DNA from: Eledone cirrhosa
Taxonomy: Eukaryota
NCBI GenBank assembly: GCA_964016885.1
Contig: CAXHJY010000928.1
Location: 1-64,000 of the forward strand
Direction: 5' to 3'
DNA length: 64,000 nt
Part shown: piece by piece, positions 1 through 2,614 of the stretch
Layout: each line of letters opens with the position of its first letter
Position numbering within the stretch: the first letter of the stretch is position 1
The notes under the pieces: generated by a model
What the model was told of the DNA's origin: nothing
Database searches by the model: none
What the model saw: the letters and a program-made list of their open reading frames with translations, nothing else
Made by a program: the position numbers and the translations under genes

Positions 1-243
1 AATCAGCACTATCCACAAGTGTTTTTTAGCCTTCATATCATGTTCTCCTGTTTTATCTGATGAAAACACTAATATTATTGCATGATGATGTTTGTTTTTG
101 AAATGCGCATAATAAAATACATGGAACTCCTTTAACCATCTTTTGATCTTATATATTATGTATACTCCAGTCCTACAAACTGTAGAGTGCTTCTTATCCG
201 ATATCTGCATTGCTTTATTGTACTACAATAAAACTCACCTCCT
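1..243 (+). mobile_element. Probable Penelope-like element pLTR remnant carrying HHR1
   Basis: Unique AT-rich segment containing a minimal type I hammerhead followed by TACTCCA...GAGTGCTT (163-192), a motif shared with the 1222-1496 segment. It ends at a (TA)n tract. No RT or GIY-YIG coding sequence is visible, so the assignment rests on ribozyme architecture. Confidence 0.5.
51..117 (+). ncRNA. Minimal type I hammerhead ribozyme motif (HHR1), Penelope-like element/retrozyme type
   Basis: Stem I TTTTAT 51-56 pairs with ATAAAA 112-117. Core CTGATGA is at 57-63. Long stem II is 64-79/84-99, with G-U pairs and mismatches at positions 4 and 7. GAAA is at 100-103. Stem III ATGCGCAT (103-110) is a perfect palindrome. 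The cleavage triplet AUA ends at 111. Confidence 0.85.
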
Positions 244-1221
244 ACATATATGTATATATATATATGTAGATATATATATATATGTAGATATATATATATG
301 TAGATATATATATATATGTGTAGATATATATGTGTGTATATATATATATGTGTATATATATATATGTGTATATATATATATGTGTATATATATATGTGTG
401 TGTGTGTGTGTGAATATTTATATATATATATATATATATGTGTGTGTGAATATTTATATATATATATATATATATGTGTGTGTGTGTGAATATATATATA
501 TATGTGTGTGTGTGAATATATATATATATATATATATGTGTGTGTGAATATATATATATATATGTGTGTGTAAATATATATGTGTGTGTGAATATATATA
601 TATGTGTGTGTGTGAATATATATGTGTGTGTGAATATATATATATATATGTGTGTGTGAATATATATGTGTGTGTGAATATATATATATATATTGTGTGT
701 GTGAATATATATATATATATGTGTGTGTGAATATATATATATTGTGTGTGTGAATATATATATATTGTGTGTGTGAATATATATATATTGTGTGTGTGAA
801 TATATATATATTGTGTGTGTGAATATATATATATTGTGTGTGTGAATATATATATATTGTGTGTGTGAATATATATATATTGTGTGTGTGAATATATATA
901 TATTGTGTGTGTGAATATATATATATTGTGTGTGTGAATATATATATATTGTGTGTGTGAATATATATATATATATTGTGTGTGTGAATATATATATATA
1001 TATTGTGTGTGTGAATATATATATATTGTGTGTGTGAATATATATATATATATTGTGTGTGAATATATATATATTGTGTGTGTGAATATATATATATTGT
1101 GTGTGTGAATATATATATTGAGTGTGTGAATATATATATATTGTGTGTGTGAATATATATATATATATTGTGTGTGTGAATATATATATATTGTGTGTGT
1201 GAATATATATATATATATATA
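244..1221. repeat. Compound (TA)n/(TG)n microsatellite grading into a ~23-bp minisatellite GAATATATATATATTGTGTGTGT
   Basis: Read directly. GTAGA(TA)n units at ~266-330 change to GTGAA(TA)n(TG)n, then to a regular 23-bp unit (e.g. GAA at 798 and 821) from ~690 to 1200. Confidence 0.95.
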
Positions 1222-1496
1222 CTTTTGGAGGCTGTCTGGAAAGTAATGGTTGTATTTTAAAAGGGTACGTCAAACCTATTTGTAAAACTGTTATATATTG
1301 TATTTTGTCTGATGAAGGCATACCATAATTTAATGTGGTATCCCTGAAATATGTATAATGAAATAAATATGGTTTTATAAATATAGTTTCCATTTATTAA
1401 TATCGTATATCTACTCCAAATATTTGTCGAGTGCTTTATATCAGTTATAAAAATATTTACTTGTTGTATCCCAACAATTTTAAATAGAACTTTTGC
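1222..1496 (+). mobile_element. Probable Penelope-like element pLTR remnant carrying HHR2
   Basis: ~275-bp unique island bounded by (TA)n on both sides. It contains HHR2, an extended interrupted stem I (c. 1272-1308 with 1358-1390) and the downstream TACTCCA...GAGTGCTT motif (1412-1436). Confidence 0.55.
1301..1365 (+). ncRNA. Minimal type I hammerhead ribozyme motif (HHR2)
   Basis: Stem I TATTTTGT 1301-1308 pairs with ATGAAATA 1358-1365 (2 G-U). CTGATGA is at 1309-1315. Stem II is AGGCATACCATA 1316-1327 / TGTGGTATCCCT 1334-1345 with one C.C mismatch. GAAA is at 1346-1349. Stem III is ATATGTAT. The AUA triplet ends at 1357. Confidence 0.88.
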
Positions 1497-1564
1497 ATAT
1501 ATATATATATATATATATATATATATATATATATATATATATATATGTGTGTGTATATATATAT
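1497..1564. repeat. (AT)n microsatellite with short (GT)n interruption
   Basis: Read directly. Confidence 0.97.
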
Positions 1565-2081
1565 TGAAGTGCATAACATACGTACTAAAGTTGCTATTAC
1601 CAATGCTGCACATTGTCTTTTCATGTTCACACACTCAATACTTTACTATATACACTCATTACTTTACATATGTGTGTGTTCTATAGTATTTATTTAGTCT
1701 GCAATTCTCTATAATTTAAAAATGCTTTTATTGCTCCAGCTTAGAATTGAGTAGGAGTTGAATTATATAAGTTAAAAACAAGAGAATAATAAATACACTG
1801 AACTAGTTTCTTGACAATTTGTGCTTGGTTCCTGATATTTAGGCAGTTGTGTCACTACTTCTGGTTGCCACCGTTGGTGAACACATATTTATATATACGC
1901 ACATATATACGTGTACACCTTAACATTTATGTACTTTAAATCCTCTTCGTCGTACACACAAACACACTTCTGCAGAAGCATGATATTAAGAGCTACTACA
2001 TTTATTCATGTAAACACCCGTATCTATATACAACAGACGTACGTACACACGTACACAATTCATACAAATACAGATACACTA

Positions 2082-2210
2082 ACACACACACACACACACA
2101 CACACACACACACACACACACACACACACACACACACACACACACACACACACACACACACACACACACACACACACACACCACACACCACACACCACAC
2201 ACCACACACA
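2082..2210. repeat. (CA)n microsatellite (~50 units) followed by (CCACACA)4
   Basis: Read directly: pure CA to 2180, then 7-mer repeats at 2181-2208. Confidence 0.97.
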
Positions 2211-2360
2211 CGCGTGTGTGTTGAGTTAAAAACTCACAACATTCGCTTCTAATCGAATAAGTTCGAGGAAGAAATTCCGAGCTCTTTATAACATATATGT
2301 GTTCAAATCAATGTGTGTGTGTGTGTATATATATATATATATATATATAACTGATATATA

Positions 2361-2420
2361 TTTATCTGATGAGGACGTACTGAAAAAGCAGCTCAGTACC
2401 TCCGAAATATATATAATAAA
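2361..2420 (+). ncRNA. Minimal type I hammerhead ribozyme motif (HHR3)
   Basis: Stem I TTTAT 2361-2365 pairs with ATAAA 2416-2420. CTGATGA is at 2366-2372. Stem II is GGACGTACTGA 2373-2383 / TCAGTACCTCC 2393-2403 (canonical G-C first pair, one C.C mismatch). GAAA is at 2404-2407. Stem III ATATATAT is palindromic. The AUA triplet ends at 2415. It lies in a ~120-bp island between (TA)n tracts. Confidence 0.88.
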
Positions 2421-2504
2421 ACATATATTTTGATTATATGAACGTATTCATTTATTAATATTCTGAATTATATATATATATATATATATATATATATAAA
2501 TACT

Positions 2505-2614
2505 GTGTTTAATATAGAAATGGCTTCTACAGGACAAGAACTGTAGATTTCCCGATGAATTCCCTCGAATAAAACAGTTCTAGTACTGTAGAAGCCATTT
2601 TTTATATTAAACAC
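2505..2614. repeat. ~40-bp imperfect inverted repeat with 29-bp spacer (inverted partial copy of a repeat family also present at 63548-63600)
   Basis: The left arm GTGTTTAATATAGAAATGGCTTCTACAGGACAAGAACTGT (2505-2544) is the reverse complement of 2574-2614 with about 4 differences. Confidence 0.9.
2548..2594 (+). ncRNA. Degenerate type I hammerhead motif (HHR4), probably inactive
   Basis: Stem I is TTTC/GAAG. The core is CCGATGA 2552-2558 (U4>C). Stem II is ATTC-cctc-GAAT. AAAA at 2571-2574 replaces GAAA. Stem III is ACAG-ttctagta-CTGT and the GUA triplet ends at 2590. The sibling copy at 63548-63600 (minus strand) retains GAAA at the same position. Confidence 0.6.

Follow-up and report, generated by a model that had tools for sequence, protein, structure and literature searches.

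Hammerhead ribozymes in microsatellite-rich DNA of Eledone cirrhosa as probable 3′ ends of separate, truncated Penelope-like elements

The pseudo-LTRs of metazoan Penelope-like elements (PLEs) carry type I hammerhead ribozymes, among them variants with a small palindromic helix III in D. willistoni and A. aegypti; in the D. willistoni Penelope hammerhead, stem III has the form AU-NNNN-AU and is followed by A17 (Cervera & De la Pena 2014, PMC4209133). The consensus of these hammerheads has a U-rich 5′ flank and an AU-rich 3′ flank, and they occur mostly as dispersed single motifs from truncated PLEs, at times as close pairs on opposite strands (PMC4209133). Hammerheads of the Hydra clade have the layout CUGAUGA-U, stem II, U-GAA and AC..GU, often with A at the cut site, and lie near the 3′ end of elements that insert in (TA)n (Craig et al. 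2021, PMC8557442). A (TA)n insertion bias is described for Hydra, Neptune and Naiad PLEs, PLE insertions typically carry a head-to-head inverted, 5′-truncated copy at the 5′ end, as in Penelope-13_HM, or form partial tandems, and Octopus bimaculoides has a Hydra element (PMC8557442). PLEs make up 6.83% of the Octopus vulgaris genome, in 190 families. Non-LTR retrozymes are tandem, near-identical monomers of 150–450 bp, each with a hammerhead (Cervera & De la Pena 2020, PMC7229834; Li, Clavereau & Pollet 2026, 10.64898/2026.07.22.740005).

The window analysed here is a stretch of 64,000 nt of Eledone cirrhosa DNA (contig CAXHJY010000928.1). Both strands of 1–6700 and 60501–64000 were scanned with a stem-aware descriptor, which recovered three zero-mismatch type I hammerheads, all on the + strand, and these are exactly the three intact, co-oriented hammerheads that a preliminary description of this DNA had placed between microsatellites. 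The CUGANGA box occurs at five sites on the + strand and one on the – strand of the whole window. The three motifs, a decayed fourth one and their surroundings are as follows.

49–119, + strand: hammerhead 1 (type I); stem I 49–56/112–119, CUGAUGA 57–63, stem II 64–99, GAAA 100–103, palindromic 8-nt stem III 103–110, predicted cut after A111
120–245, + strand: 3′ tail of remnant 1, up to the microsatellite, with homology to that of remnant 2
246–1214, no strand: (TA)n/(TG)n microsatellite and 23-bp minisatellite, from repeat analysis
1301–1365, + strand: hammerhead 2 (type I); CUGAUGA 1309–1315, stem II 1316–1345, GAAA 1346–1349, palindromic stem III 1349–1356, predicted cut after A1357
1366–1496, + strand: 3′ tail of remnant 2, meeting (TA)n 139 nt past the cut site
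1497–1564, no strand: (TA)34 tract, a likely insertion target in the light of the PLE literature
2082–2211, no strand: (AC)n tract, from repeat analysis
2350–2468, + strand: remnant 3, an island of ~120 bp flanked on both sides by (TA)n; its family is abundant and dispersed
2361–2420, + strand: hammerhead 3 (type I); CUGAUGA 2366–2372, stem II 2373–2403, GAAA 2404–2407, palindromic stem III 2407–2414, predicted cut after A2415
2507–2544, – strand: inverted, 5′-truncated 3′ end of the motif 4 family (family 4), left arm of an inverted repeat, from sequence comparison and reads
2548–2594, + strand: hammerhead 4, decayed, with two core changes; the family majority has an intact core and a Hydra-clade-like layout
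2595–2612, + strand: 3′ tail of remnant 4, in the right arm of that repeat; loose read ends behind 2600
63548–63598, – strand: further truncated family-4 copy, 85% alike over 52 nt, E 1e-10

Motifs 1–3 each combine CUGANGA and GAAA boxes with a UH site, in which H17 is A, three helices and ends that lie in stem I, as in type I hammerheads. Contiguous stem I measures 8, 8 and 5 bp in motifs 1, 2 and 3. The 8-nt stem III segments have the pattern AU-NNNN-AU/A, and each is self-complementary at 8/8 positions with G-U counted, in agreement with the preliminary description. Stem II spans 10–15 bp and consists of 3 bp, a C·Y mismatch and a long helix; G10.1-C11.1 is present only in motif 3, and A9 is not clearly followed by an extra base. 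With such a stem II and an 8-nt palindrome, the term ‘minimal’ that had been given to these hammerheads does not fit in its published sense. A check against Rfam had also been proposed; on 1–2800, at E up to 10, its 54 matches were microsatellite-driven miRNA matches and included no hammerhead, probably on account of the long stem II.

Motifs 1 and 2 are 63% alike over 106 nt (positions 99–204 of remnant 1, E 1.6e-5) and motifs 2 and 3 are 65% alike over 101 nt (E 3e-8), so that motifs 1–3 are diverged homologues. Six of the ten stem II pairs compared between motifs 2 and 3 have changed on both sides with pairing retained, a helix covariation seen in only three sequences. The earlier claim that the stem II sequences covary to keep pairing thus holds, but they are not unrelated, as it also had them. 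Kinship is weaker outside the ribozyme: the likeness score of the tails was reached by 1/2000 shuffles for motifs 1 and 2, by 44/2000 for motifs 2 and 3 and by 746/2000 for motifs 1 and 3.

The hammerheads lie close to the ends of their islands, as in PLEs, the cut sites of motifs 1, 2 and 3 preceding the next microsatellite by 141, 139 and 53 nt. Islands 1–3 end at (TA)n tracts, within a region that is microsatellite-rich throughout, and between the previous microsatellite and the core there are 88 nt in motif 2 and 16 nt in motif 3. The spacers between successive cut sites measure 1246 and 1058 nt, confirming the intervals first reported, and are mutually unrelated, with dinucleotide repeats making up 79% and 46% of them. 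The locus resembles non-LTR retrozymes in that same-orientation type I hammerheads flank non-coding DNA of low GC. It differs in its long, unrelated and largely microsatellite spacers and in ribozymes that are only ~63–65% alike; repeat analysis found no tandem repetition of any island, and no tandem array of 150–450-bp hammerhead monomers exists at the locus.

Reads and contigs were aligned to the 509-nt stretch 2212–2720, which covers motifs 3 and 4 only. This gave 2836 (X1), 2990 (X3) and 3607 (X9) records, mostly 90–99% alike, X1 and X3 being one sample. In X9, 3606/3607 reads fit partially and 83% continue into unlike sequence, while depth falls into separate blocks at 2362–2459, 2507–2600 and 2620–2654. 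Missing reads that span motifs 3 and 4 carry no weight here, as the reads are cut at repeats. Many contigs and reads cover remnant 3 at 2362–2459, with loose ends behind 2426 and 2437. The motif 3 family has 12 listed variable places in 2361–2450, at N7 (2370), in loop II, at two C-to-U wobble sites of stem II, in distal stem I and in the tail; in the rows listed (40 of 59) no invariant core base varies. G2388 and T2393 are among the variants that set the copy at this locus apart from its relatives. A second organism (X5) also carries the motif 3 and motif 4 families, in 11 contigs, and four read sets of other organisms share 6–10% of words with region 1215–2081. Motif 3 belongs to one abundant, dispersed repeat family and motif 4 to another, and through their kinship to motif 3, motifs 1 and 2 are presumably repeats as well.

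Motif 4, already described as a decayed hammerhead, has U4 read as C at 2553 and G12 read as A at 2571. In other copies of its family, 2553 is T (113/121 and 243/243 in X9) and 2571 is G (235/352 and 557/681 in X9; 44% of word depth in X1). The majority reading restores both CUGAUGA and GAAA, and the core is intact in most copies. Likeness within the family stops ~10–20 nt past the cut site. We found a 106-nt inverted repeat (2507–2612, z = –9.9) with motif 4 in its right arm, a setting absent from the preliminary description, and loose read ends behind 2544 run on as the reverse complement of the family’s intact hammerhead. The partner is head-to-head, inverted and truncated, which gives the insertion the PLE shape described by Craig et al.; no such partner was seen for motifs 1–3. 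The further family-4 copy at 63548–63598 lies 61 kb away, keeps GAAA, lacks CUGAUGA and adjoins a LINE tail. The best named match of the window’s Tx1-like LINE is an octopod protein (59%). A possible fifth remnant at 62707–62754 is not significant (E 1.3).

Like PLE pseudo-LTR hammerheads, motifs 1–3 are type I with CUGAUGA and GAAA, a palindromic stem III and A17, as in D. willistoni, and they are single motifs, in the case of motif 3 from a dispersed family, with U-rich 5′ and AU-rich 3′ flanks. Unlike these, they have a stem II of more than the 3–8 bp of 56 published examples, the C·Y mismatch and no clear extra base after A9; the restriction of G10.1-C11.1 to motif 3, a stem I of up to 8 bp and the lack of an inverted partner also depart from the PLE consensus. 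The majority form of family 4 is closer to the Hydra clade, with an extra U after A9, a U before G12, a short stem II, a stem III that opens ACAG and closes CUGU, a cut after A and a (TA)n context, and motif 4 has an inverted 5′-truncated partner like that of Penelope-13_HM. It differs from that clade in a stem II of only 3 bp plus U·U and in a loop III of 8 nt that is not palindromic. Clade membership is set by RT phylogeny and endonuclease motifs, and the likeness is one of ribozyme layout only. By eye, family 4 does not resemble the 3′ end of Hydra-1_Obim and is therefore another family.

Compared by eye, motifs 1–3 are likewise unlike Hydra-1_Obim, Naiad_Obim and Naiad_Ovul at their 3′ ends, and three motif strings are absent from the supplement text of Craig et al., where line breaks could hide matches. 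A Naiad origin, prompted by the entry ‘HHR_half_core’ in Craig et al., was rejected, the 3′ ends of Naiad_Obim, Naiad_Ovul and Naiad_Omin being unlike by eye. An ACUC..GAGU hairpin downstream, by eye common to a Hydra element, has folding z values of –0.83 to +0.83 and finds no support.

Probably, the four motifs mark the 3′ ends of separate 5′-truncated PLE copies, from at least two lineages, that were independently inserted in TA-rich microsatellite DNA; this was also one of the two readings first proposed, and the dispersed families of motifs 3 and 4, the inverted partner of motif 4 and stem III types with PLE counterparts support it. Copies of families 3 and 4 are dispersed, abundant and 5′-truncated, as PLE copies are. 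An autonomous PLE elsewhere, with RT and a GIY-YIG endonuclease, would nick (TA)n DNA, and its RNA would be reverse-transcribed from near the 3′ end. Copying would mostly halt early, so that only the last 60–200 nt, with the ribozyme, would be deposited, occasionally with an inverted partner, and repeated use of the same target would let remnants pile up. In the parent element, the ribozyme may cut a tandem precursor RNA after A at position 17. For motifs 1–3, cleavage would most likely take place in dimers joined by the 8-nt palindrome, since intramolecular closure of stem III has a predicted cost of ~2.9 kcal/mol. The remnants at the locus are probably passive passengers.

Of the 43 reading frames listed in 1–2720, 14 were searched and none matched a Pfam family, in line with the initial statement that no RT or GIY-YIG ORF is present, and the absence of a local ORF is expected of truncated ends. 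Motif-pattern scans for relatives gave no match in viral contigs and none in prokaryotic genomes, and no RT or GIY-YIG sequence was linked to any motif in the window or in these collections. Under uniform spread, one such cluster per genome is expected at an assumed 20,000 copies and 16 at 50,000. Three intact copies in 2.4 kb are rare under such a spread as long as intact copies do not number in the tens of thousands, and this rarity means that target preference has to be invoked.

The missing ORF link would also fit a family of non-autonomous, non-coding hammerheads, solo retrozyme-like or SINE-like and moved in trans by PLE proteins, to which motifs 1–3 would belong, with motif 4 as the sole true PLE end. 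A long stem II is absent from the published PLE hammerhead tables compared, and animal retrozymes, which may occur as solo monomers, have been argued to originate from PLE terminal repeats. We nevertheless consider this unlikely, given that no island is tandemly repeated, that the sequence before the core varies in length between motifs 2 and 3, as expected of variable 5′ truncation, and that the stem III type has a precedent in ORF-bearing Penelope. Chance matches in AT-rich, microsatellite-rich DNA are practically out of the question, even if stems I and III are AU-rich, Rfam yields no hammerhead and the whole-motif folding z values of motifs 1 and 2 are unremarkable (–0.19 and –1.45). Simulation with a first-order Markov model of the non-microsatellite islands (1556 nt) gave no hit on either strand in 2000 sequences, against three observed, and the compensatory stem II changes between motifs 2 and 3 and the intact cores across the read families likewise refute chance. 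In metagenomes, a similar pattern applied to sequence alone gave 119 matches across 54 of the collection’s 64 parts, all of which a stem filter of this kind rejected, and a profile search of 118 metagenome loci gave no hit at E 1e-3.

The preliminary description had offered as its alternative a unit whose transcript would be cut at 111, 1357 and 2415 into 1246- and 1058-nt RNAs able to circularise; in the form weighed here, a read-through transcript would be cut as adjacent ribozymes pair by way of their palindromes, and a host ligase could circularise the products. Three perfect, co-oriented cores speak for it, as does 8/8 cross-pairing of the motif 2 and motif 3 palindromes at a predicted –3.2 kcal/mol, equal to the motif 3 homodimer. 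However, the repeat-filled spacers are unlike each other and overlong compared with near-identical tandem retrozyme monomers, and motif 1 cross-pairs poorly, at 7/8 with motif 2 (–1.6) and 6/8 with motif 3 (+1.7). Shared orientation is unremarkable, with a probability of 0.25 for three motifs and 0.125 for four, and family 4 lies on both strands within the window. In local folds the active shape lies 4.7–6.4 kcal/mol higher than the minimum-energy fold, and in motif 3 stem I has a pairing probability of ~0.01. PLE hammerheads also cleave poorly in vitro, and that of Anolis requires the element’s protein, with no reads ending at its cut site. The unit thus finds no positive support and is quite improbable. 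Slightly more doubtful still is a cassette built by chance from motifs 2 and 3, of different PLE families, in which the palindromes would pair in cis, cuts would fall at 1357 and 2415, and a circularisable RNA of 1058 nt would result.

Read as a stack of separately inserted PLE 3′ ends, the locus is ordinary repeat DNA, since PLE ends with hammerheads occur widely among animals and PLEs make up a large share of octopus genomes. Its novelty is modest and lies in a cephalopod hammerhead family that Rfam misses, marked by its long stem II and conserved C·Y mismatch. This family can be used to extend ribozyme models and to tag an uncurated PLE lineage. If it were true that motifs 2 and 3 cleave in cis in vivo, the origin of retrozymes from PLE terminal repeats would become directly testable, and the cassette would be a snapshot of the birth of a retrozyme from PLE ends, using a hammerhead subtype that present models miss.

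We searched both strands of 1-6700 and 60501-64000 with a descriptor for CUGANGA, GAAA, UH and base pairing in each of the three stems, and it picked out exactly three hammerheads with a perfect core, all on the plus strand.

Hammerhead motifs (coordinates, strand, description)
49-119, plus: motif 1 (m1), perfect core at 57, base before the predicted cut (H17) at 111
1301-1365, plus: motif 2 (m2), perfect core at 1309, H17 at 1357
2361-2420, plus: motif 3 (m3), perfect core at 2366, H17 at 2415
2548-2594, plus: motif 4, core altered at two positions, 2553 and 2571
63548-63598, minus: third copy of the motif 4 sequence, keeping GAAA

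The preliminary description had claimed three co-oriented hammerheads and a decayed fourth, and both claims are borne out, the former by three zero-mismatch cores and the latter by the two core changes. CUGANGA boxes number five on the plus strand and one on the minus strand of the whole window, and by this count the satellite between the two scanned stretches holds no further box. The descriptor had no match in 2000 sequences (0/2000) simulated with a first-order Markov model trained on 1556 nt of local non-repeat islands, and none of 119 metagenome matches to a similar pattern, taken on sequence only, passed a comparable stem filter. An Rfam search of 1-2800, a check that had been proposed, gave 54 matches with E values of 10 or less, none of them a hammerhead.

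By alignment, motifs 1-3 are diverged relatives (m1 and m2, 63% over 106 nt; m2 and m3, 65% over 101 nt). In the tails outside the ribozyme, the m1/m2 similarity holds (matched by 1/2000 shuffles), that of m2/m3 is borderline (44/2000) and that of m1/m3 is not significant (746/2000). In stem II of each, three base pairs and then a C·C or C·U mismatch precede a long helix; of 10 stem II pairs compared between m2 and m3, 6 have changed on both sides with pairing kept. An 8-nt palindrome, AU-NNNN-AU, makes up stem III, with A17 directly after it; intramolecular closure of this stem has a predicted cost of ~2.9 kcal/mol, and the active fold is predicted to lie 4.7-6.4 kcal/mol above the minimum-energy fold. 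These modelled costs fit a ribozyme that acts as a dimer or is aided by protein. From the predicted cut sites of motifs 1, 2 and 3 the next microsatellite is 141, 139 and 53 nt away. Separately, 62707-62754 faintly resembles the 3' half of motifs 1-3 (against m2, 71% over 41 nt with E 0.004; E 1.3 in a profile search) and is possibly an old remnant without CUGAUGA.

Four sequencing runs from at most three samples (X1 and X3 being one sample) were compared with 2212-2720 at 80% likeness, a stretch that covers motifs 3 and 4. Matching records, mostly 90-99% alike, numbered 2836 in X1, 2990 in X3 and 3607 in X9; X5, from another organism, had 11. In X9, 3606 of the 3607 reads match only partly and 83% continue into unlike sequence, and depth, which here does not equal copy number, is split into separate blocks, one each over motif 3 (2362-2459), the inverted repeat and 2620-2654. 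The partial fits and separate blocks together place motifs 3 and 4 in distinct families, both dispersed; that no record spans the two motifs is uninformative, because reads are cut at TA tracts. Two further dispersed repeat pieces, 2620-2654 and 2214-2293, have depth blocks of their own, and short hairpins are predicted in 2212-2320 (z = -3.3).

Among the 40 of 59 rows listed, the invariant core bases of the motif 3 family are all unchanged; the variable places are N7, loop II, distal stem I, the tail and two stem II sites where wobble pairing can be kept. In the motif 4 family, other copies read T at 2553 (113/121 and 243/243 in X9) and mostly G at 2571 (235/352 and 557/681 in X9; 44% of word depth in X1), indicating that the family core is intact and the window copy decayed. 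Motif 4 itself belongs to a 106-nt inverted repeat, 2507-2612 (z = -9.9), of which it forms the right arm. Loose ends behind 2544 occur in 863 X9 reads and 165 X1 contigs (agreement about 0.65), and the sequence past them is the reverse complement of the family's intact ribozyme, which identifies the left arm as a copy of the same family, inverted and truncated at its 5' end. Partner and motif 4 meet at 2545-2551, a junction 7 nt upstream of the core. Elsewhere, a 33-bp inverted repeat adjoining a (TA)n tract, 62930-62962, is perhaps another tiny inverted insertion.

Neighbouring repeats (coordinates, strand where assigned, description)
2724-60575: ~42-bp minisatellite array, 58 kb, about 1440 copies, strong strand skew
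3778-4227 and 6167-6616: 450-bp LINE-like 3' end, duplicated inside the satellite
60576-61930, minus: L1/Tx1-like LINE, 3' part, interrupting the minisatellite; contains an open frame of 340 codons
61932-62445: the ~42-bp array, resumed after the LINE fragment
63603-63882, minus: related copy of the 450-bp LINE-like 3' end, 87%

The LINE fragment at 60911-61930 contains a match to zf-RVT (E 8e-6, narrowly below the curated threshold); five longer relatives were found, the sole named one from the octopod Argonauta hians (59%), which makes an octopod host probable. The duplicated 3' end, putatively CR1/L2-like, is present in copies identical at 449/450 letters and 2389 bp apart, with an internal ~110-bp direct repeat in its 3' part.

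Penelope-like elements (PLEs), which fall into 190 families, make up 6.83% of the Octopus vulgaris genome (PMC13282606); in cephalopods, Penelope ranks with the most abundant families of repeats (PMC8967140). PLE hammerheads occur in thousands per genome, mostly as single motifs from truncated PLEs and sometimes in close opposite-strand pairs; helix III is small and palindromic in some, and their in vitro activity is low (Cervera and De la Pena 2014, PMC4209133). The D. willistoni Penelope hammerhead shares AU-NNNN-AU and A17 with motifs 1-3, whose stem II is longer than in any of the 56 PLE examples compared from that paper. The motif 4 family has the layout of tabulated Hydra-clade hammerheads (Craig et al. 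2021, PMC8557442), and the same source describes PLE copies with heavily truncated 5' ends and inverted partners, as well as targeting of (TA)n. Our literature search found no published description of this long-stem-II hammerhead or of these octopod families, though repeat databases such as Repbase and Dfam may already include them; Hydra-1_oBim, the sole cephalopod PLE hammerhead it found, differs from them.

Of the two origins put forward in the preliminary description, PLE remnants in (TA)n DNA and a self-processing unit, the former is most likely. By analogy with established PLE biology, each motif-bearing island would be a PLE 3' end, left in (TA)n DNA when target-primed reverse transcription broke off prematurely, the ribozyme being retained because it is sited in the terminal repeat. 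Counting against this reading, motifs 1-3 lack an inverted partner, the search gave no link between the motifs and an ORF, and their clustering is rare under uniform spread, where one triple within 2.4 kb is expected only at tens of thousands of intact copies (assumed numbers). According to a review (PMC6765202), PLEs tend to land within or next to copies already present.

That the cluster acts as a unit, with a read-through transcript cut by its hammerheads, has little going for it: the spacers are mutually unrelated and 79% and 46% dinucleotide repeat, and co-orientation is unremarkable (probability 0.25 for three motifs, 0.125 for four), even though the m2 and m3 palindromes are predicted to cross-pair fully (8/8, -3.2 kcal/mol), which would in principle allow cleavage of such a transcript at both. 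Retrozymes, as described, are tandem repeats of 150-450 bp (PMC7229834; 10.64898/2026.07.22.740005), in contrast to this locus, which has no such array.

On the preferred origin from PLE 3' ends, the ribozyme would process tandem precursor RNA in the parent element. The Anolis Poseidon ribozyme is reported to require the element's protein; insertion in vitro does not depend on this ribozyme, and none of the RNA-seq reads ends at its cut site (PMC11167929). At the present locus the hammerheads are probably passengers. The motifs are real and of a kind already known, to which the families here add members.
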